Below the pieces are notes generated by a model. The model saw nothing but the letters and a program-made list of their open reading frames with translations, ran no database searches and was not told the origin of the DNA. From the NCBI GenBank assembly GCA_963826715.1, contig CAWGYA010000008.1, positions 800,001 through 864,000 on the forward strand: a stretch of DNA of 64,000 bases. The letters are read 5' to 3'. The number at the start of each line of letters is the position of its first letter. The stretch's first letter is position 1. Positions 8,069 through 56,061 of the stretch are shown here, one piece after another. The stretch comes from Candidatus Bathyarchaeota archaeon (GTDB lineage: Archaea; Thermoproteota; Bathyarchaeia; Bathyarchaeales; Bathycorpusculaceae). The position numbers were made by a program, and so were the translations under genes.

Positions 8069-8160
8069 GTTTAAGACACCTCTTATGTTAAAATGAGTAT
8101 TCATTCGAGAAATTTTTAAGAAAGGAGAGATTCAAGTTAACACCTAACGATGAAACATCT

Positions 8161-22177: not shown

Positions 22178-22639
22178 ATGATGAACAAAAAAATATTCAA
22201 TAACAAAAAAGCAATTTCACCAATTTTCGCAACCCTAATACTCATCGCTATTGCAGTAATTGCAGGTGTAGTAGTTTATACATTTACTTCTGGAACGCTT
22301 TCAACTATGACCGGAGGCGGAACTGCTGGACAAGAGAAAATTTCAGTACAAAGTGCATCCGTTGATAGTGATACTGGAAAGGTTCTTAGTGTGATTCTTC
22401 AGCAAACTGGCGGTCCAAATGCAACTATTAACGGTATGATAGTTAAAGACGGTTCTGGAAACACAGTTGCTTCTGACACAGCACTTAACGTACCTCTGGA
22501 TGTCGGTACTTTGACAACTATTGAGGGTACAAGCTCTGTTGCACTAACCGCAGGGAAAACCTATACAGTTACAGTGACTACAGCAGCTGGCGGCACTTTC
22601 CTATCACCATCCTTCAATAGCGCATATACCCCAACTTAA
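22178..22639 (+). CDS. Archaeal type IV pilin (probable major pilin)
   Basis: Class III signal peptide KKA/ISPIFATLILIAIAVIAG; small beta-rich domain. Confidence 0.9.
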   Translation: MMNKKIFNNKKAISPIFATLILIAIAVIAGVVVYTFTSGTLSTMTGGGTAGQEKISVQSASVDSDTGKVLSVILQQTGGPNATINGMIVKDGSGNTVASDTALNVPLDVGTLTTIEGTSSVALTAGKTYTVTVTTAAGGTFLSPSFNSAYTPT

Positions 22640-22899
22640 TGGAGCTAAAAATCTCCATAATTATTTTTTTCCTATTTTCTGTAAGTAGTCAAATTTTTAG
22701 AATAATCATCTACTTAAAATATTAATTATTCAATGTTTTCTGTTCACCGATCTTCGTCATTTTTATCGCTCTCCAAAAATTTCGGTTTTGCTAAAATACA
22801 TAGTTTATTAATTAACTCCTGAAATGAATAGCTGGAAAGCTAAAAGTGAATGGTACATAGATTGCAGATGGCCAAGAAACTGCTTAGCTAAAATGTTAG

Positions 22900-23406
22900 G
22901 TGCACCAAATGAGAAAAATTAGTAGCTGGTCGCATGATAAATGTGCGCTTAGTCCAATATTTGCAACTGTTTTGCTAGCTGTGATCATTATTAGCCTTGG
23001 TTCTGTGACTTTTTATTTTTCTAATAATTTGACTACGACTGCTACAAATGAATTTGTTGACATTACATCTAATAGTAAGCAATCTGTCTCGGAGCGAATT
23101 GCTTTTGAAAATGTTGTGTACACAACTGCCAATTCAACTTTGAATGTTTACATTCTTAATTGTGGAAGTGCAAGCAATCTGCGGTTAAATACGCTTTTTG
23201 TTTATGATGCAAATCGTCAACTTGTGGATTATGGTATTATCTCAAATTTCTATGACATGAATAATCAGGAAGTTCCAAAAACTCTCAATATTGGGCAAGA
23301 GGGATATTTTAGCTTCCCGTTAACGTCGGGTTTGCCCTTTGGCTCATATACAATTCATCTAATAACCGAAAGTGGAAGTACATTTGATTATGATTTCACC
23401 CCATAA
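22900..23406 (+). CDS. Archaeal type IV pilin (minor)
   Basis: Class III signal peptide DKCA/LSPIFATVLLAVII; ERIAFENV. Confidence 0.85.
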   Translation: MHQMRKISSWSHDKCALSPIFATVLLAVIIISLGSVTFYFSNNLTTTATNEFVDITSNSKQSVSERIAFENVVYTTANSTLNVYILNCGSASNLRLNTLFVYDANRQLVDYGIISNFYDMNNQEVPKTLNIGQEGYFSFPLTSGLPFGSYTIHLITESGSTFDYDFTP

Positions 23407-25778: not shown

Positions 25779-25977
25779 TCGATGCTTATTCGCTTATATT
25801 TCTTATTTTTAATTGTTAGAAATAATTAATTATGGGGAGAAAATCTCTATCATTTAATACAGAATTATGTCGATCAATGAAAAATAATAAAATTGACGTA
25901 GACTTAGCTCTAATACGAATTAAGGATTTACACACTTTATATGTTCTTTGGGATAATGCAATCTTGGAGACACTTAC

Positions 25978-27591
25978 TTGAAGCTCTGGAAACTTAGAGG
26001 ACGAGCAGATCAAATACTTGAAAAAAAAGTGAAAATAGCATTTGACACTACACCTGCTCTGGGGACTAAGGCTTCTCTTCAGGCTCCAACCGAAACTGAA
26101 ATTTCAGAAACTTTCAAGGAACATTATCCCTTATTAGCTCCTTTCTCGCATGCGGCAATTGTGGAAGATGAAAAAAATGAAGTCAAATATTCCCTTTTGG
26201 AACCCACATTAACCGATTATGATAAGGAATGTTTAGAGGAAATTAAGACAATTCTATGGGACGAACTTTCTGTAAATACAAAAAGCATGAAGAAACCAAA
26301 CGAATCCCATGAATTTTTACGAGACCGAATCTTAGAAACTGCAGTAAAATACAAAATTACTGTCGATGGAAATACCCTTGGCAAATATCAATATTTTATT
26401 GCACGAGATTTTTTGGGTTTTGGAAAGATTGACGGCATCATGAGAGATGAGAATATTGAAGACGTTTCTTGTGATGGTGTTAACTCACCTGTATTTGTTT
26501 GGCATCGAAAATATGAATCCATTCCATCAAACGTGGTTTTTTCAACTCCTCAAGAGCTTGAAAACTTTGTCTTCAAACTTGCATACCTTTGTGGACGACA
26601 TATTTCCATTGCTCAGCCAATCCTAGATGGAACATTAACTGACGGTAGTAGGGCTCAAGTAACATATGGAACAGAGGTTACACCCAAAGGAAGTACCTTT
26701 ACAATCAGGAAGTTTAAGAAAAGTCCTCTTACAATTACTGACTTGATAATTTATAAGGCTCTTTCGGCAGAAATTGCGGCTTACTATTGGTTTATTATCG
26801 AAAATAGGCACTCAGTTTTGATCGGTGGAGACATTGGTGGCGGAAAAACCTCTATGCTAAACGCTGTCAGTTTATTCATCCGACCCACTCTAAAAATTGT
26901 CAGCATAGAAGACACACAAGAAATACGCTTACCACACCAAAACTGGGAAATGATGGTTACGAGACAGGGTTTAGGAACTGGAGCAGGTGCAGTGGGTGAA
27001 GCCGGCATTGGTAGTATTAGTATGTTCGACTTACTTCGTGCTGCCTTAAGACAGAGACCAGATTTTATAATTGTGGGTGAAATCAGAGGTGAGGAAGCTT
27101 ATGCTTTATTCCAAGCTATGGCTACAGGACACTTAGGATTAACAACTGTCCACGCAGAACATGTCCAAGGTGTCTTGCATAGACTTACAACTAAACCAAT
27201 GAACATCCCAAAAACCCAAGTAGAAAACTTGAATGCAATCTCAATTGTAAGGCGCCTAGTGGTAAACAACATCTCCTTGAGACGAACTATAAGTGTCTCG
27301 GAAATGCTCGGCTGGGATAAACAAAAAGATGACTTCAAAACTCAGGACATTTTCCTGTGGAATGCTGAAAAAGACATTTACGTGAAACAAAGTAGGAGTC
27401 CATTACTAGATCGAATTGCGGCACAATGGGGGTATGCTCCTGAAGAAATAGATCAAGAGCTAAAAATGAGGCAAACAATACTGGAATTCATGGTTAGAAA
27501 ACATATTCGTTCATATGAGGATGTATCTAAATTAATATTGGACTACTTCTCGAATCCTGAACTTGTCTATCGAAAAGCAAAAGTGAGCTAA
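25978..27591 (+). CDS. Type IV pilus assembly ATPase (PilB/ArlI/VirB11 family)
   Basis: IEDVSCDG, FTIRKF, Walker A GDIGGGKTS, SIEDTQE, RQRPDFIIVGEIRGEEA, TGH. Confidence 0.95.
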   Translation: MKLWKLRGRADQILEKKVKIAFDTTPALGTKASLQAPTETEISETFKEHYPLLAPFSHAAIVEDEKNEVKYSLLEPTLTDYDKECLEEIKTILWDELSVNTKSMKKPNESHEFLRDRILETAVKYKITVDGNTLGKYQYFIARDFLGFGKIDGIMRDENIEDVSCDGVNSPVFVWHRKYESIPSNVVFSTPQELENFVFKLAYLCGRHISIAQPILDGTLTDGSRAQVTYGTEVTPKGSTFTIRKFKKSPLTITDLIIYKALSAEIAAYYWFIIENRHSVLIGGDIGGGKTSMLNAVSLFIRPTLKIVSIEDTQEIRLPHQNWEMMVTRQGLGTGAGAVGEAGIGSISMFDLLRAALRQRPDFIIVGEIRGEEAYALFQAMATGHLGLTTVHAEHVQGVLHRLTTKPMNIPKTQVENLNAISIVRRLVVNNISLRRTISVSEMLGWDKQKDDFKTQDIFLWNAEKDIYVKQSRSPLLDRIAAQWGYAPEEIDQELKMRQTILEFMVRKHIRSYEDVSKLILDYFSNPELVYRKAKVS

Positions 27592-27592
27592 C

Positions 27593-28474
27593 ATGAAATT
27601 TGAACCATGGACAATAGCTTACGATTTATTCAATAAAAAACTTCAGAAGGTATATCCTAAATTTCAGGAGTTACACATTCAACTAAAACAAGGCGGGGTA
27701 TTAATTGCATTTAAGGCATATATTGCTTTTATGGTTTTTTCTTCAATCATTGCCTTTGCAGTAGCTCTAACTTTATCGATTTTGTTCTTGCCACTTTTAA
27801 TGGGGATTTCTTATTTATCTGCAACTAACTTTGTTTTTAGTCTGACGATAGCAGCATCAACAGCCTTATTAACGCTAATTATAATGTATATTTATCCTAG
27901 TATAAAATCTAACAATAGAAAAGGTCCAATTGACAGAAATTTACCTTACACAGCTAACTTTTTAACTCTTCTTTCAAGTTCAAATGTTCCTCCGAGCGTT
28001 ATTTTTGAGTCAGTAGCAAAGATCAATACCCTCAAAGAAACACACTTAGAATTTGGCAACATAATAAGAGACATAGAAGTTTTTGGCAAGGACCTTATGA
28101 CCTCAATATTAGATAACGCCCGATTAACGCCTCATGATCAACTCAGAGAAATATTGTTGGGGTATGTAGCGACAGTAAGAACTGGCGGAAATCCTACAGA
28201 GTATCTTAAAATAACAACTGAACAAATTACCAAAGAAAGAATGTCTAAATTGGATATGATGCTTGAATCCCTATCTGCCATGGCAGAAATATATATTATG
28301 GTATTAGTTGCTGCTCCCCTGCTGTTCGCCGTGCTCTTTGTAACCCTTGGCATGATAGGCAGCGGTGACATTGCTGGCATGAACATGGGAACGCTCCTTT
28401 ATCTATTAACTTACATAGGCATTCCAATTATGGGCGCTGTAATGATGGTAATTATGTCATCATTCGAGAAGTGA
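27593..28474 (+). CDS. T2SSF/TadC-like membrane platform protein
   Basis: IDRNLPY, IIRDIEVFGKD, TGG and TM helices; follows the ATPase. Confidence 0.9.
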   Translation: MKFEPWTIAYDLFNKKLQKVYPKFQELHIQLKQGGVLIAFKAYIAFMVFSSIIAFAVALTLSILFLPLLMGISYLSATNFVFSLTIAASTALLTLIIMYIYPSIKSNNRKGPIDRNLPYTANFLTLLSSSNVPPSVIFESVAKINTLKETHLEFGNIIRDIEVFGKDLMTSILDNARLTPHDQLREILLGYVATVRTGGNPTEYLKITTEQITKERMSKLDMMLESLSAMAEIYIMVLVAAPLLFAVLFVTLGMIGSGDIAGMNMGTLLYLLTYIGIPIMGAVMMVIMSSFEK

Positions 28475-28480
28475 TTAACG

Positions 28481-29305
28481 ATGAGAATGATCAAGAAAAC
28501 TATAAGAAAAATCGAGATAGCTTCAATCATAGCAGCGGTGATCTTTCTCGTTGTTTCAATGGTATTCTATCTTACATCTCCAACTTTAGATTACATGTTG
28601 GTTATAGCCCTCACAATAGCTGTTGCGCCTTCAAGTTTTGCCCAAATAATCCACAATCGTTGGAGACACAAAATTGAAAAAGCAACCCCTGAATTTCTCA
28701 GGGATTTAGCAACAGCCTCAAGAACCGGAATCCCTCTTCAAACAGCATTAGAACACGCATCTAACCGAATGTATGGTCCACTAACAGCTGAACTGAAAAT
28801 ATTAGTTGCGCATATGAGTTGGGGTATGAATTTTAATGAAGCCCTAACCAAGTTCAGTGACAGAGTAGACTTACCTCTTATCAATAAAGCAACTATCTTG
28901 ATAAATGAAGCAGGAACTCATGGAGGGGACTTGTCTGACATTTTTGATTCAACTGCAAAATACCTGGAAAACATTAACTCTTGGGCAGCTAAAAGGCAAA
29001 TGCAGACTTTCCCATATATTGCCATATTTTATTTCTCAGTTTTCATGTTCTTATTCATAATAATTGTTATATCTAACATGATGTTTGCCCCACTAGCCCA
29101 AACTACAGGTGACACATCATTCATCAAGCCGATTCTTACACAAGCGGAATCTAGGCGAGTGTTTCTGCATGCATCACTGTTGGAATGCTTATTTGGAGGA
29201 TTAATTGCTGGAAAAATAAATGAAGATTCCTTTGTTGATGGTTTGAAACACGTAATGGTGTTATCGATCGCATCAGGAGTGGCATTCTATCTGTTTCTTC
29301 GATGA
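28481..29305 (+). CDS. T2SSF/TadB-like membrane platform protein
   Basis: PEFLRDLA, YGPLTAEL, SWGMNFNEAL, GGDLSDIF, GLKH. Confidence 0.9.
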   Translation: MRMIKKTIRKIEIASIIAAVIFLVVSMVFYLTSPTLDYMLVIALTIAVAPSSFAQIIHNRWRHKIEKATPEFLRDLATASRTGIPLQTALEHASNRMYGPLTAELKILVAHMSWGMNFNEALTKFSDRVDLPLINKATILINEAGTHGGDLSDIFDSTAKYLENINSWAAKRQMQTFPYIAIFYFSVFMFLFIIIVISNMMFAPLAQTTGDTSFIKPILTQAESRRVFLHASLLECLFGGLIAGKINEDSFVDGLKHVMVLSIASGVAFYLFLR

Positions 29306-35225: not shown

Positions 35226-35870
35226 TTAAAATAATTCTACTTCAGCAGTTGTTATCCTGCGATATCCCAGCAAAGTTTGTCCTCCGTAATTACCACAAGT
35301 TGGATCGTAGACTGTTTGGTCTTGTCTTTTGGCTTTGTTTATTCCTATTACTTTTGATATTATTCTTGAGACTTCCGCGGGGGTGTAGAATTGCCCTTTG
35401 CTTTTTCCTGATTCTGTTGCAAAGTGTCGCATCAGATATTCATATGCGTCGCCTAATAGGTCGTCTCCGTCTGCTCTATTTTGGCTAAAGTCAAGTTCAG
35501 GTTTCTGAAAAATGGCAATGAGGTTTGAGAGGCGATCTTGCATTTCTTTGCCTTGTCCGAGTTTGTCTTTTGCATCAAAATCTGCAACTGTGATAATTCC
35601 GCTTAACTCGTTTGCCTCTGCGAGTTTTGCAATGATTTTGTTTATGCCTTCTCCGATTCCCGGTTTGCCTTTGAGGGCGATCATATCGTTGAAGCTTGCG
35701 CCTTGGGGGACTATGATTACGTCGTTTTTTCCAGCATAGCGGTCAGAGACATACTTTATGAAGAGAAGGACTAAGACGTAGTCTTTGTATTGGGAGGCGT
35801 CCATGCCACCGCGTAGTTCGTCGCATGATTCCCAGATTGAGCTGTATAGTTCACTTTTCTTAACTGGCAA
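35226..35870 (-). pseudogene. hsdM: Type I R-M methyltransferase (HsdM) N-terminal fragment
   Basis: CDELRGGMDASQYKDY, LGDAYEYLM, GQFYTP, VYDPTCG; homology stops at motif I (~35292). Confidence 0.85.
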
Positions 35871-36066
35871 AGTCTACACCCAAGCGTATGTTAATTTGAT
35901 TGTCATATGATGGACAAGCGCGTGCTATTAGAATCTTATTTTTATTTTTATTTCATGCGCTTCTTTTAGACATCCGTGAAGGTTGACGATTTTTCCCAAT
36001 TTACTATTCTCAGGTCTTCTTTCATTCGTCAAGGCGCGCGACGAAGCTACCGGCAATTATTAATCT

Positions 36067-37102
36067 TTAATCTGTTCGATATTTCTGAAATAGCTCATCG
36101 GTTATAAAATACAATTTACCTCTCGTTCTTGAACAAGCAACGTAAAATTTGTTTTTCGTTTGGGGATTCAATTTGTGCAGTTGATTTCTATCGAATAACC
36201 TTTTCGTTGTTTTATTAAACACAACGCATACATCGTTGAAATGATCAATTCCTTTTGAGCTTCCCCAATTTAGACTTAAACATCCGTACTTTGAGTGTTC
36301 CCTGTAAAACAATTTAATAATTGAGTTGTCTTCGATTATAAAATCAGCATCTGCTTGCTTTGTTATGCTTATGATATCCGTTTCCTTATTAGCAACTGAA
36401 CATATGTCTATCCCTACATTGTTTTTAATAAAATCACATACTGATTTGCTACAGCGGTAACTATTATTTAGAGATGTTATATCAACTGTTAGACCCATTG
36501 ATTTGAATTCTTTCTTGTATGAATCATAGTCGGAGAAGAGGTTACAGTTCACATTTCCATCAACGCTTGTGTCAAAAGTGTGTTGATAAAAATCCCCTAC
36601 CAACAGTATATCACAATTAACTTTAGCAAGACTTTTTAATAAATTGAAATCGTGTCCAGCAAAATCTTGTATTTCATCTATAAAGATAGAATCAAAATAT
36701 TTCTCTATGCTGAGCATTTATTTCTCGCAATATATTAAATGTTTCACAAAGCTTTGCAATTCGATTATGGTACAGTCGTCTATTACAATCCAAATAAAAC
36801 TTAAGATCAGTCCTTTTACAATACATTGTATCAGGGTGTGGTTGTTTCCATCTTATTCCATTAGATTTTACTTTATATGACAATAATGGTTTAAAACAAA
36901 AAGAATGTAGAAATGTAAAGTACGATAGTAGTTTAATATTTTTAGGAAAATAACCAAATCTTTCGATTATTCTACTTCTTAAAGTAAATACATTATTCTC
37001 GGTATATGTGATAAGTAGGAAGCGGTTTTCAAGGTTTAGCTTATTTATGATATGTGTTGTTTTTCCTGAACCTGCAACAGCGAAAATCACTCGTTTATCC
37101 AT
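36067..37102 (-). CDS. gajB: Gabija GajB-like UvrD-family helicase (apparent +1 frameshift at ~36711)
   Basis: AVAGSGKTT, LITYT, FIDEIQD, VGDFYQ, SYRC, SKG, YVACSR; removing one base restores INARIEKYFD (~344 aa). Confidence 0.75.
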
Positions 37103-38647
37103 TGAATGGCTTCCTGAATGTATTGAGGAACGGTTATTGCACAAGCTTTCTTTTCTAAAAGTTCAAACGCACTATCGGCTTTGTTTTTAAGCATATACTC
37201 TTGAGCAGGTAATTTTTTTGTTGTAAATACTTCATCACATATTGCCTTATTATCGGCATAAACGCAAATTTCAAATGTTCTTTTTGTTTTATCAAGGTCA
37301 TAACAAATTTTTATAGTCTTAATTGCTGCATAGTCGGCATATTTTTGAGTTAAATCTTCGATAGCGCCATCATTATCAGTAATAACAACTGTTTTGATTG
37401 CTAAGGTTTTAGCAAGATCTAGATATCGTTTAAAGCTTGTTCCACCTACCGCAATAACATGAACACCTGAGTCGTTCAGTTCTTTCTTTGCAAAATTGCG
37501 ATACATAGCTTCCATTAAAATATACTCAGCATCACCTTCGACTAAAATTACCTTCTTTGAAAGGACAAATCGTAGAATGTTATTATTCGGAGATTTCATG
37601 AAGAATTTTGCTGTGTCTTCTGACAAACAATTAAGCGTAACTAAAGAGGTATTCTTGTTATTTAGTAAAATTGTGTTTCGCAAGTCAAGTCGTGCGCTTA
37701 TCAAATCACTATGGGTTGCTATGAATATCTGTTTTTTTTCTGTTCCCTGTATTTTTCGGATAAGCTGTTGCATGTTTGAATGGCTCAAATGATTTTCTGG
37801 CTCTTCAATTAGAACGATATTTAATTCCTTTTGCGACTGCAAGGCTAACTCTGTTTTAATAAAACATTGTTTACCTTTTCCTTTGTTGTCTATACTAATG
37901 TTATTCTCTAAAATGGCTAAATCGTTTTCCAAACTGGCTCTTAAGTTATATTTTAATTGCAAAGCTATAATTTGGAATCCTACCATCTAAAGCTGATAAA
38001 ACTTCTTTTTTGAATTTCTCTTTGTGATCTCTATATTTGTGCTGATTAGTTAGTTTTTCAACGCCTTGTACGCTCGCATTATAGATTTCCTGCACATATT
38101 CCTTTATTGCATATTCACTACTTGTTTGAGAATTATCAACTAATATATGTCTGACAAATTTTCGATAACTATTATAAGACTTATTTGCAAAAGTGGTAAA
38201 TTCAATAGAATAATATTCAAATGGAAAATTTGATTCTTGTTTTAATAAAATTTCTTTTATCTGCTGGCTATAATTATCATTTGGTTTGCATACTAACCTT
38301 AATCCATCGCAGTTAAACTGTTTATTATTAAATTTACCACAGAGCTCATCATTATCTTGTTCATTCAAATACAATTCAACAATTAACTCGGGTAATTCAT
38401 TGTATTTTCGCTCAGATTTCATAAATTTTTCGATTGGCTCAGAATCAAAAAGATTATCTAAACCTATACTTTCAATCTTATTTCTGCTTCCACTTAAGAC
38501 AATATCAATTGCTTGTAAAATTGAACTTTTACCTGCCTCGTTATCTCCAATCAATATATTTAACTGACTGTTAAAGTCAACTTCTAAGCAAGCAAATCGT
38601 TTGAAGTTCTGCAATAGAATTTTTGTAATTACTGGATCATTAGGCAT
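37087..38647 (-). CDS. gajA: Gabija GajA-like OLD-family ABC-ATPase/TOPRIM nuclease (apparent +1 frameshift at ~37952)
   Basis: LQNFKRF, GDNEAGKS, IEEPENHL, ATHS, TOPRIM LVEGDAE and TDND; overlaps the helicase start (~519 aa when joined). Confidence 0.78.
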
Positions 38648-40889: not shown

Positions 40890-41862
40890 CTAAACTCCAT
40901 GAGCAAGGAAGTCCGCTGTTTGCTGTACAGCCTTTTGGCTGTTTAGTGTTGGGTTCCATCCCGTTGCCATAATTTTTTGGCTATCCAGGAGCATGATTTT
41001 TACATCGCCAACCCAGCCTCTGCCACCATCTACTCCGCCTGTTAATACAAGATCTACATGCTCTATTCCCATAGCTGAAATAACAGATTCAGCAATATTC
41101 CTCACGTTAATTTTATCTTCTGAACCAACATTAAAGATTTCAACTTGCTCACTTGAAACTGTACTGCCATGTATCAACGCAGATATACAATCTTTGACAT
41201 GAAGGTAGGATTTTGTTTGTGTGCCATCTCCCAGAATTTCAAGCCTGCGCGGGGTTGCTCGGAGTTTTTGGACAAAATCATAGATTACTCCATGACTGCT
41301 TCTTGGTCCTATGATATTGGCTAAGCGGTAGAGTGTTGCCTTAAACCCATAATTATATGCGTACGCTGAAATTAGACGCTTCGCAGGCAAGCTTTGTAGC
41401 AGCATAAATCGATATTGGTTTGAGTGGTGCATAATTTTCAGGGGTCGGAATCACTGTGGGTTCCCCATAGACTGCGGAGGTGGAGGTAAAGATCAACTGG
41501 GGGGTGGTGTGGCTTTTTCGTATGTATTCAAGTAAGTTGTAGGTTGCTACTACGTTTTGGTTGTAGTGGGTCTCTGGGTTTGTTGAGCTAACTCTAACCT
41601 CAGGGTTAGCTGCTAAATGATAAATAAAATCAAACTCTCTACCATCCAGCGGCAACAACGGATTGGTTAAATCAAAGTTTAGAAAACAAAAATTAGGATT
41701 ATTTTCCCACTGTTTTAGATTAGAAAGTCTACCAGCACTCAAATTATCCAAAACACAAACTTCAAAACCTAAGACCATCAACACATCAACTAAATGACTG
41801 CCGATGAAACCAGCACCACCAGTTACGAGCACTTTGCTTTTTGCCAAGTAATAATCCACCAC
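40890..41862 (-). CDS. NAD-dependent epimerase/dehydratase (apparent +1 frameshift at ~41376)
   Basis: VTGGAGFIGSH, HLAANP, YAATK, RLANIIG, GDGTQTKSY; removing one base restores CEALISAY. Confidence 0.88.
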
Positions 41863-48098: not shown

Positions 48099-49186
48099 CT
48101 ACGACAGAATCATCCGTTTCTCTGCGTATTTAATTTCGACAACGCGTTCTTTGTCTGTAACTTTGCCGATCCGCTCTGGCTCCATACCCGCTTGACTTAG
48201 AATATCTAATCGCCTTATCAACGTCGAGTTTCGTCAACAATAATACCAAAACCCCAGCCCATGTTAAAGGTCTTGAACATTTCCTCATCAGTAATTGTGT
48301 ATCCGAGCTCTGATGCAGTTCGTTGGATCACACTAAAGATGGGTTGTGGCTTGAAATTCGTCAAACAAAAAGCCAATGCCCGGCGAATATGCTAGCCAAC
48401 ATTGTTGAATTTCATATAAGAGTCGCCTGTTATATGCACAGCTGCTTTCACTTTAATTTCACGAGCCAGTTTTAGAAATGGCTTTACGTAGATTTTGGTT
48501 GGTTCAAGTGCTTCAAGCACAACTTCTCTCTCCAAACCTTCTGGAATATCATTAGGCTCATATTTACCTCCCCACTTCTTGAAGAGGATTTTTCTAGCCA
48601 TGGTAATGCCGTTACTGTGCAACCCGCTACTAGCTAACCCGATGATTTGGTCACCCGGTTTGACGCCCTTGCCCGTTATGATGTTTTGGCGCTCAACTTT
48701 GCCCACGCATGAGGCAACCATGTCAAAACCCGAGTAGGGTGTAATGCCCTTGATGATTTCTGCAACGTCTCCTGTTTCACCGTTCACAATTGGACACTCG
48801 GATTCCTCTGCGCCCGAGATTAAGCCATTTAGCCACGCTTTGACAAGGTTGGGTTCACTGGCTACTGCGTGAATGTTATCTGCAAGGGCAAGCGGTTTAG
48901 CGCCGGAGCGAATAACATCATTTACAACCATAGCTATCGCGTCTATACCGATTGTGTCGTGTTTTTTTGCAAGTTCCGCGATTAAGACTTTGGTGCCGAC
49001 ACCTTCGATTTGAAGGTCCAAAAACGTGTCTTCGTCAACTGGGAAAATGTTGCCAAAGGGCAAGTGCATGATGCCACCAAAACCAATATGCTTGTATGTT
49101 TCTTTGAGGGTTGAGAGCGCTTTTTTGGATTCATGGCGTTGTGATCGGTTGACGCCAGCATCAGTGTAAGTATAGTTTTTAGGCAT
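48099..49186 (-). CDS. purM: AIR synthase PurM (about five apparent single-base insertions in the 3' part)
   Basis: YTDAGV, EGVGTK, GETG, SSGLHSNG, HITG; downstream frames give EEMFKTFNMGWGF and a TAG at 48099 (~360 aa). Confidence 0.9.
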
Positions 49187-49334
49187 CGCTATTTCTCCTT
49201 GCACTCTAAAAGTGTAGAATGCTCTCTGATAATTATTTTGTTTTTATACTCAAATGTTTGATGATTAGATGAGTTCGCCATAATCATAATCCAATAGGGC
49301 AATGTTTTAGTGTATAAAACCCGCACAGTAGGCT

Positions 49335-50190
49335 TTGATTAACTTGCCTAATCCCAAGTACCACATCTACATTGAATATAGTGAGCCTGACAAGTCTGGC
49401 ATTCGATTCAACGTTCCCCATTCAGAACTAATTGGGGCATTCTCAGAATCTTTTGTCAACGGCGAACCCTTCTGGTTTATGGGACGCCTCCTAAACCCAA
49501 TCAAAGTCACCAAAGTCATTATCTTTTGGTCATACGAAACAGCCGACCAACTGCGTTTACCAAACCATGAAAATCTAATATCAGCTAAAGACAAAAAATA
49601 CGTCATCGACAACGTCCTAAAAGGTAGAGTTAAAGGCGTTTACCTCTGCACCGAAGAATTTGTCGATGTGGCCCAAAAAAACTCCGTGTCAACTCCACAA
49701 CACTCAGAGCGCAGCTTTAACTCCAAAAGGCACTCCACGACGAATAATCGTAGTTTCCGGAACAGATGAAACAATGAAACCCACCATTACTGCAGCTTTG
49801 AAAAAACTCGGTCTCGCTTCGATAGTAATGAGCGAAGAACCTAGCCAAGGTAAAAAAATTGTCGACCGCTTCGCAGAATATAATGATGTAGGATTTGCTG
49901 TGGTCTTGCTTTCACCTGATGTTTACGTCTACCCAAAGGGTGAAGAAGCTACAAAACGCAAACGCATCCCAAAACAAGACGTGACATTAATGTTTGGATT
50001 CCTATTAGGTAAACTTGGGAAAAATAATGTGCTTGCTTTCTATAAGGAAACCCCAAACTTCGTATTTCCAATAGAGTTTGAAGGTGTAAAATTTACGGCT
50101 TTAGATGACCGCGACAGCTGGAAGCTTACTCTCATTCGTGAACTCACCAGTTGCGGCTATATCGTTGATGCTGAGCGACTTCTAAGATAA
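49335..50190 (+). CDS. Nucleotide-binding TIR-like domain protein (CAP12/Pycsar-type TIR; apparent +1 frameshift at ~49700)
   Basis: LKKLGL..EEPSQGKKIVDRF..DVGFAVVLLSPD..GFLLGKLGK matches this TIR-like family; two ORFs overlap in a linker. Confidence 0.75.
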
Positions 50191-50473: not shown

Positions 50474-50546
50474 GCGGTTGTAGTCTAGCTCGGTAGGACT
50501 CCAGCTTCCCAAGCTGGCTACCCGGGTTCAAATCCCGGCAACCGCA
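50474..50546 (+). tRNA. tRNA-Gly (CCC)
   Basis: Acceptor stem GCGGTTG/CAACCGC, anticodon arm CCAGC-TTCCCAA-GCTGG, T arm CCGGG-TTCAAAT-CCCGG; no intron; CCA not encoded. Confidence 0.95.
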
Positions 50547-50851
50547 TTTTAACCTCACCATAATTCAGGTTTGAATCCCAGCGGGTTTACCATAATTTCC
50601 CGTGCTAATGTATACTTGCTCGAGTATCCCTTATTAGAGGGAAAAATAATTGCCGACAACCCTTTTTCAATGCTTTATTATGAGAGACAAGTTTGAATGC
50701 TTCTTCCAAAGTTAAATTGTTACGTTGTAAATGTCTATACTATACGGAATTTTCCTTCTGGTGCTCGTGGGAAGTGTTGGTCTTTTGCACTATTTATTGT
50801 TTAGCAATTCTTATATCTGCGTAAACCTATAATTTTTTAGGAGATTTTTTA

Positions 50852-51268
50852 ATGGTTGAAAAGCCTAAAGAAATTCTTTTAAAGCCAACTCTGAAAAAAT
50901 ACCTCATAACATGGAGTCTCGATCTTGATCGAACAGAACTCGACAAGATCTCGCAGCATCCAGATGTTCTGAACAAAGGCTTAAAGTACATAAGAAGCAC
51001 CACAAGAAGAAACCCAATTAGCATCTACCGAATAGGCTCACTGGAGGAAATTTCTCATTTTGTTCATACTAACCGCTTAAGCTCAGCTAAGTCAGCTCAT
51101 CCTCACGGCATCGCAATTGCTGAAGCAACATCTATCGAAGAAGCAAAAAAAATGGTTGATCTGCTAGTTGAAGGTCTAGGATTTGGTTTCGGCTCATTTC
51201 CAGTGAAAAACTATCTTGAATATGATATAAACCCATTAATCGAAGTCTCAGCAGAAGGGAGGCAATAA
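50852..51268 (+). CDS. Hypothetical protein, first gene of the Gly-rich operon
   Basis: 138-aa ORF, AGGAGA SD, ends 1 nt before the next gene. Confidence 0.65.
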   Translation: MVEKPKEILLKPTLKKYLITWSLDLDRTELDKISQHPDVLNKGLKYIRSTTRRNPISIYRIGSLEEISHFVHTNRLSSAKSAHPHGIAIAEATSIEEAKKMVDLLVEGLGFGFGSFPVKNYLEYDINPLIEVSAEGRQ

Positions 51269-51269
51269 T

Positions 51270-52202
51270 ATGTCCGTTTTTGACATTGTCGGAGTTGTCA
51301 AATATGGCAACATGGTGCTTCAAGCATCAACAGTGAAATTTGAAAAAAACAGTAAATTGGTATTGGCTCCTTCGGAGAAGAACATGTATCCTCCGAAGTC
51401 ATTGACGATAATTGCAGATAGAATCGAAGTCGTTGACCACGCAGAAATAACCTATGATTTCGATGGGCTTCCGGGTTTTGACCCTGACACACCTGCCCTG
51501 CCGCAGATGGGGACCGTGCCAAACGCTGCTAACGGCTCATCAATCCCAGGCGAAGGTAGTTACCCACAAGCCATAGACGGCGGACCTGGACATCCCGGAT
51601 CAACAGGACTCAAAGGCATAAATGGACAAGATGCCCCAGAGCTGCAAATATTTGTCGGCGAAATAATTCAAACATTTTCAGATGCAATCAAAGTAAACTT
51701 CAAGGGCCAAGATGGAGGTAAAGGTGGAAAAGGCGGCAATGGAGGCAAAGGAGGAGATGGCCAACAAGGAGCAGCCTCACAAGCAAGCGATTCATGGTAT
51801 GACGGCGATCAATGCGATCGAGAACCAGGAAAAGGTGGAAATGGTGGACGAGGCGGCGACGCAGGATTTCCAGGAAGAGGCGGCTCTGGAGGAACAGGAG
51901 GCGTAATCAAAGTTTTTGCAAAAGCAGCATCTTTACCTGCAGCTCAAGGCTGGACTTATATTGTTAAAGGCGGACGAGGCGGCGACGCAGGTGACCCCGG
52001 GAATAAAGGTGCAGGCGGAAAAGGTGGACCGCAAGGAACTAAGAATGACCCATGTCCCGAACGACCAGAGTATCACGGATCAGATGGCCCCAATGGGCAA
52101 TCTATGGATGATGTTGATACCAATTGGCAACTAACTTACAAAGGCAAAGACGGCGCAGAAGGAGAATCCAATACCTATGAACTCACAGGAGTACCTAACT
52201 AG
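51270..52202 (+). CDS. Glycine-rich (GGx)n collagen-like/polyglycine-II protein 1
   Basis: GGKGGKGGNGGKGGDG and GKGGNGGRGGDAG blocks; no signal peptide. Confidence 0.8.
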   Translation: MSVFDIVGVVKYGNMVLQASTVKFEKNSKLVLAPSEKNMYPPKSLTIIADRIEVVDHAEITYDFDGLPGFDPDTPALPQMGTVPNAANGSSIPGEGSYPQAIDGGPGHPGSTGLKGINGQDAPELQIFVGEIIQTFSDAIKVNFKGQDGGKGGKGGNGGKGGDGQQGAASQASDSWYDGDQCDREPGKGGNGGRGGDAGFPGRGGSGGTGGVIKVFAKAASLPAAQGWTYIVKGGRGGDAGDPGNKGAGGKGGPQGTKNDPCPERPEYHGSDGPNGQSMDDVDTNWQLTYKGKDGAEGESNTYELTGVPN

Positions 52203-52217
52203 GAGGATGATGGTTAA

Positions 52218-53264
52218 ATGATAATAACTCAAATATTCACAGTAACAGGAAACACCGATGTTGACGACGACATTATCTTCTGTCGCAGACTCGAATTCAT
52301 AGGTCCATCAGCACAGCTCGTAATTAAGCCCAAGAAAAACGCTCCTCCAGGAGCACCACGCATTCTAAAGATTGTAGCAAACGTAATCGACTCAACACTA
52401 GCAGGCGGTTCTGGTGAAATAACCTACAACCTTGATGGCGACTACTTCCCTGCAATTGAATTACCGATTGGAGACAGTGGAATAGACCCAGAGACACAAG
52501 CCAAAACAGGAGACGACGGAAAACCCAGCTTCAACCAAGGACCAATCCCTCTACCGGATATTGCATCGCCCAACTTTGACCCCATTTTGGATGCACTAAA
52601 TCTCGGAAATTACCCGAAAGCAACCAACGGCGGAGACGGTGCTACAGGCGGACGAGGCAACAAAGGCGTTAACGGAGTCAATGCCCCCATAGTCGAAATT
52701 TGGACTACAGAAATCGACGGTAAGCTTGTTCTTGACCTCAGAGGACAAAAGGGCGGTATAGGCGGGAAAGGTGGAAATGGAGAATTTGGTGGAAACGGCC
52801 AAAATGGCTCCACTGCTGTTGAAGGCACAGACACCACATGGATAGGCGTTCCAAATCCTGTCTGTAAACAAGGACCGGGACTGGCAGGTGACGGTGGAAG
52901 AGGAGGCAATGCAGGCTGTGGCGGTGACGGCGGTGACGGCGGAAACGGAGGGACTGCAAAGCTTTTCTATACAAACGGAGTAAACTTAGCAAACGTAATT
53001 ACAAACTTGCAAAAAGGCAAGGCCGGTCAGCCTGGTAGCTCAGGAAATCCGGGAAATGGTGGCAAAGCGGGAAAACCCGGCTCCAATCTTCTAACAACCT
53101 GTAACCCAGCACTAAATTCTCTAGACGGTGCCAATGGTGCCTCCTGTGTTCGAGAAGGAGATAAAGGAGGCGGAATTGCACAACTGGGAGCAGACGGATT
53201 AGACGGTCAGTATTTCAAGTATGCGATTAAAGCAATACCTCAAATGCCAGGACTTTGGCCATAG
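52218..53264 (+). CDS. Glycine-rich (GGx)n collagen-like/polyglycine-II protein 2 (paralogue)
   Basis: Same architecture (EITY.LDG, NAP.VEI, RGQKGG, GGRGGNAG); AGGAGG SD. Confidence 0.8.
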   Translation: MIITQIFTVTGNTDVDDDIIFCRRLEFIGPSAQLVIKPKKNAPPGAPRILKIVANVIDSTLAGGSGEITYNLDGDYFPAIELPIGDSGIDPETQAKTGDDGKPSFNQGPIPLPDIASPNFDPILDALNLGNYPKATNGGDGATGGRGNKGVNGVNAPIVEIWTTEIDGKLVLDLRGQKGGIGGKGGNGEFGGNGQNGSTAVEGTDTTWIGVPNPVCKQGPGLAGDGGRGGNAGCGGDGGDGGNGGTAKLFYTNGVNLANVITNLQKGKAGQPGSSGNPGNGGKAGKPGSNLLTTCNPALNSLDGANGASCVREGDKGGGIAQLGADGLDGQYFKYAIKAIPQMPGLWP

Positions 53265-53309
53265 AAACATAACATCAGAAAAAATGGTCGCTTTTGAGAC
53301 CAATTTTTT

Positions 53310-54440
53310 TTATATTATCTTGATACCCTTGTCTCGAATTAGTTTCTTTACGATATTTCCATAAGCAATCGTGCCGCTTATTGCATCTTCAGCCTCTGGA
53401 GTGGTTATATCTCCGCCTAGGATTGATTTTAAGTCTTCAAGTATTTCTGGACATGTTGCATTGACTGATTCTTTGAACGGTTCGAATGGCACGTAGAATG
53501 ATGGTTTTCTCCCTTGGCGTGCTTCTTCGAGCACAACTGGACAGCGTGAAAGTGAGTATGCCCAGAATCTGATGTAGAAATTCGCGTTAGCGAAATCTCC
53601 ATGTTGGATTAACGCTCTTGCAACGAGCTCTCTGAATTCTAATTCCAAAGACGAAAGTGAATATTCAAAGTGCCCCCGAGTCCTGAAATATGTGCCTCGA
53701 AGTTGGCGATCTGCGCATCTTGCAAAAACTTTGTTATATACTCTATGTAGAGCGATTAATGAGTTCGTCGGATCACCATCAATATGCAAATTTGTTCTTA
53801 TCAATCGGTCAAGGTCTGTGTTCGTTTCATCCGTCAAATGTTTAATTTTTGTCATAGGTCTTGATAGTAGGCTCATGGTACTACTTTTTAGGCTATCCGC
53901 AAGAGCCATAGTGAAGTAAGAATGCGAGGTCTGCAGGAAAAAAAGAGCCGCTGGAGGAAAAGCCAAGTTTTTATTCGCTTCTTCAAGAGCTGCATCTCCA
54001 AAGTTGAGTTGATGATGAATTCTTGCAGCCCACGCTTCAATATCGTAAGTATGCTGCTTGACATTTTCAACTACATCCCTTACAGTATCTGATCGCATCC
54101 AAAGATTTTCATATTCTAACAGAAGATGGGGCAAGATTTTGTATCTAACCGCTTCTTCAGAATCAAATACTTTTTCAGCAGGTATCCAAAGTATATCAAT
54201 AAATTTTCGCCCCAGTTTAGTTTGTACGACAATTCGCTCAGGCATCTCTTCCGGTTTTTCCCAGATTGAAATCAGGTCTACATCTGACACTTCAGGGCAA
54301 TCTTCGTCAACAAGTGGTTTTCTCACGAGGATTCCAATAGCGCGGGGTATTAGCAACTCGCATGCTTTTTCTGCTGCTTCGTACAGGGATTCTTCGAGGA
54401 GTTCCCGTTTACTTTGTGAAAGATTACCCTTGATCATCAA
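53310..54440 (-). CDS. Pol-beta-superfamily nucleotidyltransferase-like protein with helical C-terminal region
   Basis: SDVDL and FIDILW acidic motifs; overlaps the upstream gene by 4 nt. Confidence 0.5.
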   Translation of the reverse strand: MMIKGNLSQSKRELLEESLYEAAEKACELLIPRAIGILVRKPLVDEDCPEVSDVDLISIWEKPEEMPERIVVQTKLGRKFIDILWIPAEKVFDSEEAVRYKILPHLLLEYENLWMRSDTVRDVVENVKQHTYDIEAWAARIHHQLNFGDAALEEANKNLAFPPAALFFLQTSHSYFTMALADSLKSSTMSLLSRPMTKIKHLTDETNTDLDRLIRTNLHIDGDPTNSLIALHRVYNKVFARCADRQLRGTYFRTRGHFEYSLSSLELEFRELVARALIQHGDFANANFYIRFWAYSLSRCPVVLEEARQGRKPSFYVPFEPFKESVNATCPEILEDLKSILGGDITTPEAEDAISGTIAYGNIVKKLIRDKGIKII

Positions 54441-55516
54441 TGTGATTTCTCCAAAATTCTTTTCTTATATTGGTTCAAGGCCATAAAAACCGTGGCTGTC
54501 GTGAACAAACGACGGTGGTCTTTGATGACTGCGTTTATTGCCCTTCCGTCGGCATTCCATGATTGTTGATTCCATGGCTCCTTTATCCAAGGGGCGGGAA
54601 TTCTCAAAATGTGATTTGTAGCCCAGCTGCCGTCAGGGAGTTGATTTGCAACGAGCCATTTTATTCCGTTTTTTATCTGGGCGTCGAAAATCATTTTGGG
54701 ATCTGCCAACAACCCGCTTAATGCAAGAGCCGTCGAAAAGGCCCAGCCTGATTCTTGAACTTTTGAATCAGCCCAGCTTCCATCTGACAATTGTGTTTTA
54801 GCAATCCATTTTTGCCCTTTATATATTAGGTTGATATCATCTTTGTTTCCCCTTTTGTTAAGCGCTTCAATGCAGTGGGTGGTTGCATAGAGTTTTCCAA
54901 TCCACCAGTAAGAATTCCAGCAACCTTCAGAAATTTGTCCATTTCTGATATAGCTTAACACTTCGTCGACACCTTTAGATGAACAATTTTCCATTAACGC
55001 TTGAGCTGCAACAGCACTAACACACATTTGAGACGACGCCCAACCCTCAAATGAAACATTGTCATCAATCCTCATGTAACGTCCAACGGCCCTTGGAGCT
55101 GCATACGTTCTGAAACCACCATCAAAAGGACTCTGATGTTTCAATAAGAAATCTAATGCACTCGAGAGCTTTTGTCTGTTCAGACCCTCAAAGTTGGAAA
55201 GGAACAGAAGACACCACGAAGTTGAATCTGCATCCGACGGAACACCATAACCATAACTCCAACCACCATCCAAATTTTGGCATGTAAGAATGTTTACCGC
55301 TGCTTTCTCAAGAAACTTTTTTTCTTCTGATTCTTTTTCAAACACAATTAGAGAATATCCGACATACCCCGAAACCCAAAACACACTTTCCCCAGCTAAA
55401 GTGAGAAAATCGGACCAGAAACCGTCTGCATTGAGGCTTTCACGAAGGAATTTTCGAGCACCCTCAATCGACTTCAGTAAATCTTCTGAGGTGTCAAAAT
55501 TCTCTTTCAGAACCAT
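54437..55516 (-). CDS. Prenyltransferase/squalene-cyclase QW-repeat protein, single alpha/alpha barrel
   Basis: QNLDGGW, QSPFDGGF, QISEGCW, QLSDGSW, QLPDGSW repeats; PSDADST at the DxDD position. Confidence 0.8.
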   Translation of the reverse strand: MVLKENFDTSEDLLKSIEGARKFLRESLNADGFWSDFLTLAGESVFWVSGYVGYSLIVFEKESEEKKFLEKAAVNILTCQNLDGGWSYGYGVPSDADSTSWCLLFLSNFEGLNRQKLSSALDFLLKHQSPFDGGFRTYAAPRAVGRYMRIDDNVSFEGWASSQMCVSAVAAQALMENCSSKGVDEVLSYIRNGQISEGCWNSYWWIGKLYATTHCIEALNKRGNKDDINLIYKGQKWIAKTQLSDGSWADSKVQESGWAFSTALALSGLLADPKMIFDAQIKNGIKWLVANQLPDGSWATNHILRIPAPWIKEPWNQQSWNADGRAINAVIKDHRRLFTTATVFMALNQYKKRILEKSH

Positions 55517-56061
55517 ACTTACCTTGTATTATATAGCGATACTACATATTTATGCAATATGGCGCCCATAAATACTTTTTTGTTAAGGCTGCAACTTTCT
55601 GTTTGATTGCATTGAATTCGCTTAAATAATTAATTGCATCTCATCGAACCCGTCCTAAAAGATTCGTTTATTCCATAAATAGACTCGTGTAAAAGCACTG
55701 GACTTGACCCCGTTCAAGGCTGCACCCCGGCAACCGTGCCAATCTTCCAGTTTAATTCCTTCGTTTTATGTTATTGCGAAACATAGTCTCGCCTTTGCTA
55801 GGTGAAAAGTAATTTCTATAGTTTAGGCGATGGCAAAAGTACATTGCGAAACGGTTATTTCGTTATTTTCTAAACACTGCAAATATTAGGAAATAGAGGT
55901 CTTTTCTTGTTGTCTTGTTAATAAGAAACCATTTCCACTACTAAAACCACAATTCGCTATTGCAGAATTCTCAACAAACCTTTTAGCCGAGCAAGAGAAA
56001 CAAAATAGAAAAGGTTTGCCATTATGAAAGGTACCAAAAGAACAAAGATACTGTTTCCGTA

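Follow-up and report, generated by a model that had tools for sequence, protein, structure and literature searches.

Organization of the locus

The stretch of DNA analysed here, referred to as the window, comprises 64,000 nucleotides of a Candidatus Bathyarchaeota genome and contains five intact ORFs that lie between two copies of an 11-mer and form two convergent operons within a cassette of 4.7 kb. The plus-strand operon consists of g1 (50852-51268; 138 aa), which encodes a small alpha+beta protein, g2 (51270-52202; 310 aa), which encodes a beta-helix combined with a glycine-rich polyproline-II (PPII) bundle, and g3 (52218-53264; 348 aa), a full-length paralogue of g2; the gaps are 1 nt between g1 and g2 and 15 nt between g2 and g3. 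On the minus strand are g5 (54437-55516; 359 aa), for a single-domain class II terpene cyclase of the MstE family, and g4 (53310-54440; 376 aa), for a protein with a nucleotidyltransferase (NTase) fold of the KNTase/ANT(4') type together with HEPN-like helical bundles. These two genes overlap by 4 nt, and g4 is coupled to g5. The operon ends are 45 nt apart and meet at a hairpin between the converging stop codons (53277-53311) that is terminator-like in both directions (z -3.8; 0 of 200 shuffles fold as well). Comparable hairpins with other stems, as judged by eye, occur in L001-L007, L015 and L019 of the related loci described below.

Upstream of the cassette is a plus-strand tRNA-Gly(CCC) gene (50474-50546; predicted by ARAGORN, and scoring 66.9 bits with Rfam). 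The left copy of the 11-mer (50534-50544, plus strand) corresponds to positions 61-71 of the 73-nt tRNA, i.e., its 3′ end, and the original prediction was correct that this sequence recurs exactly at 55726-55736 (plus strand), 210 nt before the start of g5.

Conservation of the cassette

A genome scan with g4 as query gathered 26 loci. All five genes are present in the identical convergent order in 23 of these; two of the remaining loci are cut by contig ends, and the third is a 30-residue fragment (L026). Apart from that fragment, no locus of sufficient length lacks either operon. The suggestion that the five genes constitute a system is thus borne out, and the contrary outcome, that the two operons never co-occur elsewhere, is not what is observed: computation shows the five genes to be inherited together as a real unit. 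The hosts are uncultured archaea of soil and sediment, mostly Bathyarchaeia and Nitrososphaeria. The flanks of the loci are unrelated to one another, and those of the window are shared by 0 of the 26. The tree of g5 conflicts with the trees of g1-g4, sharing 5-7 of 15 splits with them, versus 9-12 among g1-g4 themselves.

When flanking ORFs of at least 70 aa were compared, no sixth gene was shared by more than 9 of the 26 loci. The neighbors include a membrane protein of 136-157 aa (9/26 loci) and GMC oxidoreductases (4/26), and both of these accessory genes are absent from the window. No prenyltransferase profile was detected among the scanned flank ORFs (44, 18 and 14 ORFs, in hand-picked and partly overlapping sets). 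Literature searches found no published description of the five-gene set; the cyclase by itself adds one more member to an established family.

Relation to tRNA genes

The tRNA-Gly gene is probably the insertion site of the cassette, in the window's genome only. By analogy to the related locus L016, the right copy of the 11-mer is probably an att relic. Taken alone, the repeat is borderline with respect to chance. Nowhere in the window is a longer piece of the tRNA-Gly copied. When the 10 kb downstream was shuffled 2000 times, however, 110 of the shuffles contained a perfect match of 11 nt or more to the final 37 nt of the tRNA, and among 506 mismatched flank pairs 33 have at least 11 nt in common. 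A post-hoc test with a 12-mer (0/100 shuffles) overstates the significance of the repeat. A second, T-arm-like fragment of a tRNA 3′ end, identified by pattern match at 50568-50594 (plus strand), has no Rfam match and does not fold above the level of shuffles (z -0.98); it may be what is left of an att site derived from a different tRNA.

Two other loci show in kind that the cassette can be mobilized through tRNA ends. In L016, a tRNA 3′-end duplication brackets the cassette as perfect 30-bp repeats (30/30 bp), and in L021 there are three tandem copies, features reminiscent of integrase-less tRNA-linked islets; none of the five ORFs encodes an integrase. In contrast to such islets, the target tRNA varies from host to host, most loci lack a repeat (in 21 of 23 tested, the longest within 500-bp flanks is 8-10 nt), and the composition is that of the host, with cassette GC tracking flank GC (rho 0.96, n = 23). 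The last observation gives no support to the recent foreign origin that had been envisaged. A tRNA-Gly anchor as a general feature of the system is not supported either: neither this tRNA nor this repeat lies at the ends of any other locus, and DNA similarity to the closest relative extends over 50675-55562, short of both copies.

The cyclase

The cyclase-like barrel of the original prediction can now be placed in the MstE family. Over its full length, g5 matches PDB 8pak (E 6e-46) and MstE itself, the merosterolic acid synthase (6sbb; E 1e-38), with residues 12-347 aligning to MstE 23-360; like MstE, 8PAK, 8PAJ and 6IJ1 (E 1e-38 to 6e-46), it is a single barrel of ~360 aa with a DxD acid. The MstE-type profile gives E 1.8e-57, compared with 2e-29 for squalene-hopene cyclase. 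The general acid is D95-x-D97 (DxD rather than DxDD), with both Asp residues present in 19 of 19 sequences, and the two positions altered in entries 6sbf and 6sbg are occupied by aromatic and basic residues. Judged from its sequence, g5 belongs to the MstE-type single-domain class II terpene cyclases and has kept its acid intact. One report describes the DxD motif for MstE-type cyclases and already mentions archaea among the members of the clade; the characterized domains that it treats act on a C20 chain carried on an aromatic head, dihydroxybenzoate (PMC12414744).

The glycine-rich proteins

The two proteins originally termed polyglycine proteins are indeed glycine-rich, each being 21% Gly with runs of Gly-X-X triplets, but they are not homopolymeric polyglycine. 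In the AF2 model of g2 (pLDDT 92), a beta-helix is interleaved with a PPII bundle and capped by a Cys-flanked Trp hairpin. The PPII bundle of Gly-X-X runs is shared with snow flea antifreeze protein, phage gp38 and PE_PGRS proteins; the interleaved beta-helix and the hairpin cap set g2 and g3 apart from these. The best beta-helix match has Z 7.3, whereas snow flea antifreeze protein (2pne) aligns with g2 over 81 of 81 residues (Z 10.4, rmsd 1.6). The hairpin residue W176 of g2, together with C182 and C262, is present in 32/32 sequences, and the g3 hairpin residue W208 in 21/21, along with four invariant Cys; hhalign relates the paralogues with probability 100 (E 5e-42) and aligns W176 to W208. 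Other Trp residues, namely W228, W286 and W162, are also invariant.

The two proteins are predicted to form a parallel rod-like pair. Their modelled complex scores 0.70, versus 0.02 for the best control. The mark for this score is attained for 116 of 157 complexes of solved structure and for 2 of 215 mismatched pairings. At least 70% of contacts are common to the runs, with partner pLDDT of at least 71. Neither W176 nor W208 is named in the modelled interface. The paired Cys residues suggest an oxidizing compartment, which contrasts with the missing signal-like N-termini (none in g2, and only 1 among 47 g2 hits family-wide).

No Pfam family lies above cut-off for g2 or g3, and a structural match to a DUF7932 protein (E 4e-8, TM 0.36, rmsd 16.7) is a weak lead. 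The wider family is nevertheless large, with 706 representatives found with the g3 profile at E ≤0.001 and 155 at ≤1e-10. Among 100 hits with a recognizable hairpin, a count that includes about a dozen close relatives, the tip is aromatic in 79 and Trp in 34. Because an aromatic tip is a trait of the wider family, the hairpin Trp may itself be a hydrophobic contact. In distant relatives, the part resembling g2 and g3 is often an N-terminal module attached to other domains: among 69 hits longer than 600 aa, a TIG domain is seen in 56 and an SGNH/GDSL hydrolase in 30.

Springtail antifreeze proteins rank first and second among the fold matches, and one host is labelled palsa, which raises the question of whether g2 and g3 are ice-binding proteins and the enzymes unrelated passengers. 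The glycine-rich PPII bundle is indeed common to both (from the model for g2, by homology for g3). Springtail antifreeze proteins, however, are Ala-rich, with an Ala-rich flat face, whereas the non-Gly triplet positions here are rich in Lys, Asn, Asp, Gln and Pro, with Ala at 5 of 62 and 6 of 61. Linkage to g4 and g5 in 23 of the 26 loci speaks against passengers as well, and we consider the antifreeze scenario very improbable.

The NTase-fold protein

As originally proposed, g4 is NTase-like: its AF2 model (pLDDT 93) has a Pol-beta NTase domain and a helical bundle. The closest whole-chain fold is ANT(4') (Foldseek E 1e-4; Z 12.3, rmsd 4.4, 225 residues aligned), followed by LinB (Z 11.5), Hailong HalB (Z ≤8.7) and Tam41 (Z ≤6.3), such that all of the best whole-chain matches are NMP transferases. 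With ANT(4'), LinB and HalB, g4 shares the helical bundle and a DxD plus a third Asp. These three aspartates correspond to the metal-binding catalytic carboxylates of the fold; in 119 homologues, D53 is found in 115, D55 in 117 and D82 in 117, the remainder being gaps or Glu. It differs from these enzymes in being ~120 residues longer, in having 9-13% identity and no sequence-level match, and in lacking the Gly-Ser motif. Where ANT(4') has Gly-Ser, g4 of the window has Val-Arg-Lys-Pro at positions 39-42, a register set by eye; hhalign gave no alignment of the two proteins. The G[GS] phosphate-binding motif before DxD is absent from the commonest states of the family at these positions, which are Cys/Val at 39, R40 (115 of 119, with 4 gaps), K/R41 (103) and P42 (115).

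One scenario is that g4 is a true nucleotidyltransferase. Tam41 makes CDP-diacylglycerol, and g4 might likewise activate a cyclized prenyl-phosphate lipid, or else nucleotidylate g1, g2 or g3 as a switch. The fold matches and the three retained acidic residues are in keeping with this idea, as are the Atlas neighbors that have a Pfam family, which fall in NTP_transf_2/KNTase_C clusters (0.93-0.95); the absence of Gly-Ser at 39-42 argues against it, as does the Polbeta profile, which touches just 1 of 68 family members (E 0.19). On balance, nucleotidyl transfer seems rather unlikely.

A different proposal concerns purpose, and is compatible with the other readings: the cassette could be an anti-virus or inter-microbial conflict module that makes, for instance, a terpenoid able to modify membranes and uses the g2-g3 rod as a sensor or a decoy. 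It is patchily distributed, att-bounded, integrase-free cargo, the tRNA is immediately preceded by a split PDC-S35/TIR gene, and the HEPN-like bundles of g4 match with Z up to 14.6. The HEPN RNases of MNT-HEPN toxin-antitoxin pairs have the motif Rx4-6H, whereas R253 and H257 of g4, each present in 116/119, are spaced Rx3H. Neither PADLOC nor PHROG matches any of the five genes at an E-value below 0.0067, this value being an AbiEi match for g4, the sole one in PADLOC 2.0, which identified no described anti-phage core genes; moreover, the scanned flanks are mostly housekeeping or metabolic. A conflict role therefore appears improbable.

Possible functions of the cassette

The characterized MstE-type domains considered here work on C20 chains already joined to an aromatic head, so that a partner transferase would be expected, with g4, the gene coupled to g5, as the candidate. 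Our tentative and favored reading, which we hold at well below even confidence, is that the cassette is a self-contained, tRNA-att-mobilized module that equips the two structural proteins it encodes with a polycyclic isoprenoid anchor. The g4 protein would hold host geranylgeranyl diphosphate at its Asp/Mg site, with Arg40 and Lys/Arg41 gripping the leaving pyrophosphate, and would move the C20 chain onto Trp176 and/or Trp208. Asp97 of g5 would then protonate the terminal alkene and the chain would be cyclized, after which the lipidated g2-g3 pair would be inserted tip-first in the membrane; g1 would be a helper or chaperone. Points that weigh against this reading include the conflicting tree of g5, the existence of other invariant Trp residues, and the pairing of Cys in proteins that lack signal-like N-termini. 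Put in its full form, with an NTase fold turned tryptophan geranylgeranyltransferase, an MstE-type cyclase making a sterol-like polycycle on a beta-helix/PPII heterodimer, and mobility in Bathyarchaeia and Nitrososphaeria, the protein-lipidation reading is doubtful.

The nearest parallel is provided by NctPC and ChrPC, prenyltransferase-cyclase maturases of ribosomal peptides in which a cyclase domain cyclizes a prenyl chain on tryptophan; the domain of NctPC is MstE-type and acts on a C20 chain on a peptide tryptophan, while ChrPC pairs a different prenyltransferase fold with its cyclase domain, so that the transferase fold varies (PMC13290415). The cassette for its part has an invariant hairpin Trp in both paralogues, although aromatic tips are common in the wider family. 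Unlike NctPC and ChrPC, the five genes include no ABBA or trans-IDS transferase, although the genome may encode one elsewhere, and a weak search found no fusion. There is also no room within the cassette for a short leader-core precursor (gaps of 1, 15, 45 and -4 nt), and the proposed acceptor is instead a folded protein of 310-348 aa. Compared with MstE, the cassette is without a conserved prenyltransferase of known fold nearby, and has an NTase-fold gene and two PPII proteins coupled to the cyclase instead. A narrow literature search turned up no earlier example of an NTase fold acting as a prenyltransferase.

That the product is instead a small molecule or a lipid is nearly as probable as a lipid anchor on Trp, though as a reading of the whole cassette it too is doubtful. 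Here g5 would cyclize either a small acceptor bearing a geranylgeranyl group or an intermediate of archaeal lipids (GGPP, geranylgeranylglyceryl phosphate). The g4 protein would add a head group or move the cyclic prenyl, and the g2-g3 pair would bind, carry or display the product, or dock the cyclase, which has no membrane domain, on the membrane. Residue 325 of g5 is basic in 19/19 sequences, and HMMER aligns to it the MstE Arg mutated in 6sbg; such a residue would suit an anionic small-molecule head, which counts against a protein anchor. The occurrence of distant g2/g3 relatives as an N-terminal module next to TIG and SGNH/GDSL domains would suit a targeting role, and the membrane protein and GMC oxidoreductases of some flanks fit a pathway. 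These accessory genes are, however, missing from the window, no transporter or tailoring gene is constant, and among 149 g3 relatives there is no fusion to a g1, g4 or g5 domain. The strict retention of two paralogues would also need an extra assumption.

Whichever reading applies, an MstE-type cyclase is embedded here in a strict and compact gene context in archaea, whose ring-forming terpene chemistry has received little attention, and is paired with an NTase-fold enzyme of rebuilt phosphate site and two members of an unnamed beta-helix/PPII family of hundreds of clusters. If the favored lipid-anchor reading holds, prenyltransferases would gain a new fold and archaea a polycyclic lipid anchor carried by a folded protein, and a function would be found for the large PPII domain family. 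If the lipid pathway holds, Bathyarchaeia would contain cyclized geranylgeranyl lipids, which would be relevant to membrane biology and biomarkers.

With regard to g1, the modelled interface names none of its residues. Six of 22 family members match DUF3303 (best E 0.0087), a weak lead to a possible relationship, and the dN/dS of the gene is 0.12-0.19.

Conservation of the five-gene cassette

The original prediction was of a five-gene islet in two convergent, close-packed operons, and five intact ORFs are indeed found between the two copies of an 11-nt piece of the tRNA-Gly 3′ end. On the forward strand are g1, which encodes a small protein (50852-51268), and g2 and g3, which encode Gly-rich paralogues (51270-52202 and 52218-53264); on the reverse strand are g4, for an NTase-fold protein (53310-54440), and g5, for a cyclase of the merosterolic acid synthase (MstE) type (54437-55516). 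Where the operons meet lies a hairpin whose fold is better than that of any of 200 shuffles. Fusion of g2 to g3 by readthrough was considered and rejected: the genes are in frame, but two stop codons lie between them. A search that scored 7999 candidates 700-2000 aa long, of little weight as evidence, gave no longer, fused form of g4. By eye, no operator common to the g1 and g5 upstream regions was evident beyond TATA-like boxes, and no structured RNA was found besides the tRNA.

The two operons also co-occur elsewhere. With an alignment of 68 g4 sequences as query, drawn from 120 listed of 174 matches, we found 26 loci with g4 among 185,579 species genomes (L001-L026, each with its own numbering), and 23 of them have all five genes, with the convergent arrangement unchanged. 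Two others, L022 and L025, end at a contig edge, and their cassette order agrees as far as it is visible; in L026, what is present is a 30-residue piece of g4 at the end of a contig, preceded by neither the g4 N-terminus nor g5 nor anything else of the cassette. The test is one-way, in that it shows that g4 brings the other four genes along; the reverse linkage is weakly supported by five contigs, matched by identical length, that are apparently common to the g2 and g4 match lists. The nearest relatives of the cassette are in Bathyarchaeia genomes (g4 identity 77-80%), which makes a Bathyarchaeia archaeon the probable host. The flanks vary widely between loci; in the window they are the purM/TIR gene and a GT2 gene. 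A frameshift in one or more cassette genes is present in at least nine of the 26 loci and may reflect assembly indels or decay, the former being possible because several unrelated genes of the window are also split. Values of dN/dS are 0.07-0.19 in all 13 comparisons with unsaturated dS (18 comparisons made).

For the 18 loci in common, the trees of g1 to g4 have 9-12 of 15 splits in common, whereas the g5 tree has only 5-7 of 15 in common with the others. The g5 data also reject a single group of the window with L001, L002 and L003 (p-AU 9e-5; the group was chosen after viewing quick trees). This conflict, together with the rejected grouping, suggests that the cyclase has been swapped between cassette lineages yet always retained.

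We conclude that the five genes are a real, conserved and mobile archaeal system, apparently undescribed, whose parts can be placed by fold or family. Full-text literature searches, judged by title and the start of the abstract, brought up no description of the gene set; few subscription journals were covered, and a prior listing of the genes is possible.

The Gly-rich proteins g2 and g3

The proteins had been called polyglycine proteins, a term that is apt in that both are Gly-rich and too strong in that glycine makes up only 21%, in triplet runs. They are full-length paralogues (probability 100). The predicted model of g2 (pLDDT 92) is a beta-helix interleaved with a polyproline-II (PPII) bundle, and the bundle resembles the snow flea antifreeze protein (Z 10.4, rmsd 1.6, 81 of 81 residues aligned). 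An antifreeze role, to which this likeness would point, is in our judgement very improbable. Among the matches listed, no single solved chain covers the g2 beta-helix together with its PPII bundle, which does not imply novelty of the fold. Residues 171-184 of g2 form a lower-confidence hairpin bearing W176, which aligns with W208 of g3, and both tryptophans are invariant.

In a model of the g2-g3-g1 complex, g3 scores 0.70 against 0.02 for the best control, a mark attained by 116 of the 157 solved complexes and 2 of the 215 mismatched pairs used for calibration; the model differs from this calibration in having three chains and custom alignments, and true homodimer paralogues could also pass. 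At least 70% of contacts agree between runs, and partner pLDDT is at least 71. The modelled contacts set beta-helix on beta-helix and bring the Cys-flanked ends together (g2 188 with g3 299), and because these ends are joined, both Trp hairpins should face the same direction. No g1 residue is named in the interface of the three-chain model, in which g1 was not the scored partner.

A search with the g3 profile matches 706 representatives. The hairpin pattern occurs in 100 of the 150 g3 matches listed, with the second Cys in 99, an aromatic tip in 79 and Trp in 34; no g1, g4 or g5 domain was found in 149 g3 relatives. More distant matches (131, of which 3 are fragments) have a hydrophobic N-terminus, by a crude hydropathy rule, in 34 of 59 mid-sized proteins as against 7 of 69 long ones; a hand count over these 69 long proteins gave TIG domains in 56 and SGNH hydrolase domains in 30. 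These sequences, P0191-P0321, make up a large unnamed beta-helix/PPII/Cys-hairpin family, in which the module either stands alone with a hydrophobic N-terminus or precedes a TIG, SGNH hydrolase, glycosidase or peptidase domain. Among the cassette proteins, a hydrophobic N-terminus is seen in 0/21 for g3, 0/22 for g1, 0/19 for g5 and 1/47 matches for g2.

The enzymes and a possible mechanism

The cyclase g5 is like MstE in its full-length similarity and its DxD motif. It is far closer, by a wide gap, to single-domain cyclases (8pak, E 6e-46; MstE 6sbb, E 1e-38) than to squalene-hopene cyclases. In 19 of 19 sequences D95-x-D97 is invariant, residue 147 is a Tyr or Phe and residue 325 a Lys or Arg; residues 147 and 325 align with those altered in the MstE mutant entries 6sbf and 6sbg. 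MstE is reported to use a DxD acid and to cyclise a C20 chain borne by dihydroxybenzoate, and some archaeal sequences belong to its clade; the supplementary file of that study has two Thaumarchaeota entries and no Bathyarchaeia or Nitrososphaer- name (PMC12414744). Among prenyltransferase-cyclase maturases of ribosomal peptides, the MstE-like domain of NctPC cyclises geranylgeranyl-tryptophan, and in ChrPC the cyclase domain is coupled to a different transferase fold (PMC13290415).

Along its whole chain the predicted model of g4 (pLDDT 93) matches kanamycin nucleotidyltransferase, ANT(4′) (E 1e-4; Z 12.3, rmsd 4.4, 225 aligned), and over 116-132 residues it matches HEPN-like bundles (Z 14.6, rmsd 3.0-3.7). 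Profile comparison of g4 with ANT(4′) by hhalign gave no alignment, and g4 had no PDB sequence match as a single sequence or as a profile. Among 119 homologues, D53, D55 and D82 are retained, R40 and P42 are invariant save for four gaps, and 103 have a basic residue at position 41; ANT(4′) instead has Gly-Ser at the end of the strand where g4 has the R40/P42 region, with the register set by eye. Arg, Glu and aromatic residues are invariant at many places in g4, which speaks for an active enzyme whose phosphate site has changed. That it is a true nucleotidyltransferase, as the fold and retained aspartates would allow, we consider unlikely. Transfer of NMP and transfer of a prenyl group both release pyrophosphate at a metal site, and by this analogy a switch from the one to the other is plausible for g4. 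For g1 to g4 there was no family match above the cut-off in Pfam, NCBIfam, PHROGs or PADLOC, and a defence role seems to us improbable.

Since an MstE-type cyclase should require a head group that is prenylated, and since g4 is the sole coupled enzyme and the only constant companions are g2 and g3, each with a projecting Trp, we tentatively read g4 and g5 as lipidating tryptophan. In this scheme g4 would be a Trp geranylgeranyltransferase of new fold acting on the projecting Trp of g2 and g3, g5 would then cyclise the attached geranylgeranyl chain, and the product would be a membrane-anchored g2-g3 rod. Ranked next, and only slightly less likely, is that the product is a small molecule or a lipid, for which g2-g3 would serve as carrier or dock.

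Mobility and tRNA ends

In L016, the cassette is bracketed by an intron-containing tRNA (8034-8166; Gly by relaxed ARAGORN, Arg by the anticodon arm as read by eye) and a perfect 30-bp copy (30/30) of its 3′ end at 14171-14200. L016 and L021 have a 5.7-kb block in common at 98.3% identity and nothing in common outside it, and L021 (5036-14220) contains three tandem copies of the L016 att, an integrase-free array of att-bounded modules. Because these att repeats bracket the cassette, it is concluded that in at least one lineage it moves by tRNA-end recombination without an integrase of its own. In the first att interval of L021 lie a GT4 glycosyltransferase gene and a gene with weak likeness to QueC. 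L018 has an intron-containing tRNA that stops some 100 nt short of g5, and no second copy. Default ARAGORN reported a tRNA in one of the 26 loci, and a motif scan then revealed more.

In the window, the 11-mer at the end of tRNA-Gly(CCC) (50474-50546) lies at 50534-50544 and recurs exactly at 55726-55736. This repeat is borderline against chance (110 of 2000 shuffles; at least 11 nt in common in 33 of 506 mismatched flank pairs), and DNA similarity to L001 spans 50675-55562, stopping short of both copies. The 11-mer is probably a relic of tRNA-end recombination. A second tRNA-3′-end-like fragment, of different sequence, lies 21 nt past the tRNA (50568-50594).

Cassette GC follows flank GC (rho 0.96, n = 23), which counts against recent distant transfer. 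In the g4 tree, with unstarred support, Bathyarchaeia fall in three groups, one of them inside Nitrososphaeria. Bacterial host labels are doubtful: L026 is the fragment described above, and L014 ('Desulfaltia', a 7.5 kb contig) clusters with Bathyarchaeia and has a transposase 83% identical to one in L017. The L014 cassette lies between two pieces of one transposase family (667-744 and 5608-5685; 78 bp, 90% alike). Plasmid collections gave no g4 or g3 match and phage collections no g2 or g5 match. Plasmids gave ten weak g5 matches, of which the sole full-length one (Deinococcus, 25%) lies in an unrelated annotated neighbourhood.

Accessory genes and other features of the window

For g1 there was a weak DUF3303 lead and no significant PDB match. 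A membrane protein of 136-157 aa, with no Pfam or NCBIfam match, adjoins the cassette in nine of the 26 loci, in three arrangements and 73-413 bp away on either side and strand (for example L005 8441-8851, L025 8024-8497 and L020 13647-14066, with six other loci). A 340-aa Lsa23-like protein (below cut-off, E 5e-17) adjoins it on either side in four (L001 14052-15074, L002, L003 and L008 1598-2626). One or two GMC oxidoreductase genes are near the cassette in L011, L012, L013 and L020 (4/26), and in three of these they seem to be collinear with g1 and the membrane protein. None of the three is encoded within the window.

Indels are common in the window. A PDC-S35/TIR-like gene (49335-50190, E 4e-37), just upstream of the tRNA, is apparently split in two frames; an NAD-dependent epimerase gene (40890-41862) falls into two ORFs, and the C-terminal domain of a PurM-like ORF (48392-49204) is cut short. 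At 35226-38647, OLD-family ATPase/TOPRIM and UvrD genes, which we take to be Gabija-like, are each split and are followed by a short HsdM fragment. Finally, a type II/IV secretion ATPase gene, two T2SSF membrane genes and ORFs that look pilin-like by eye lie at 22178-29305.
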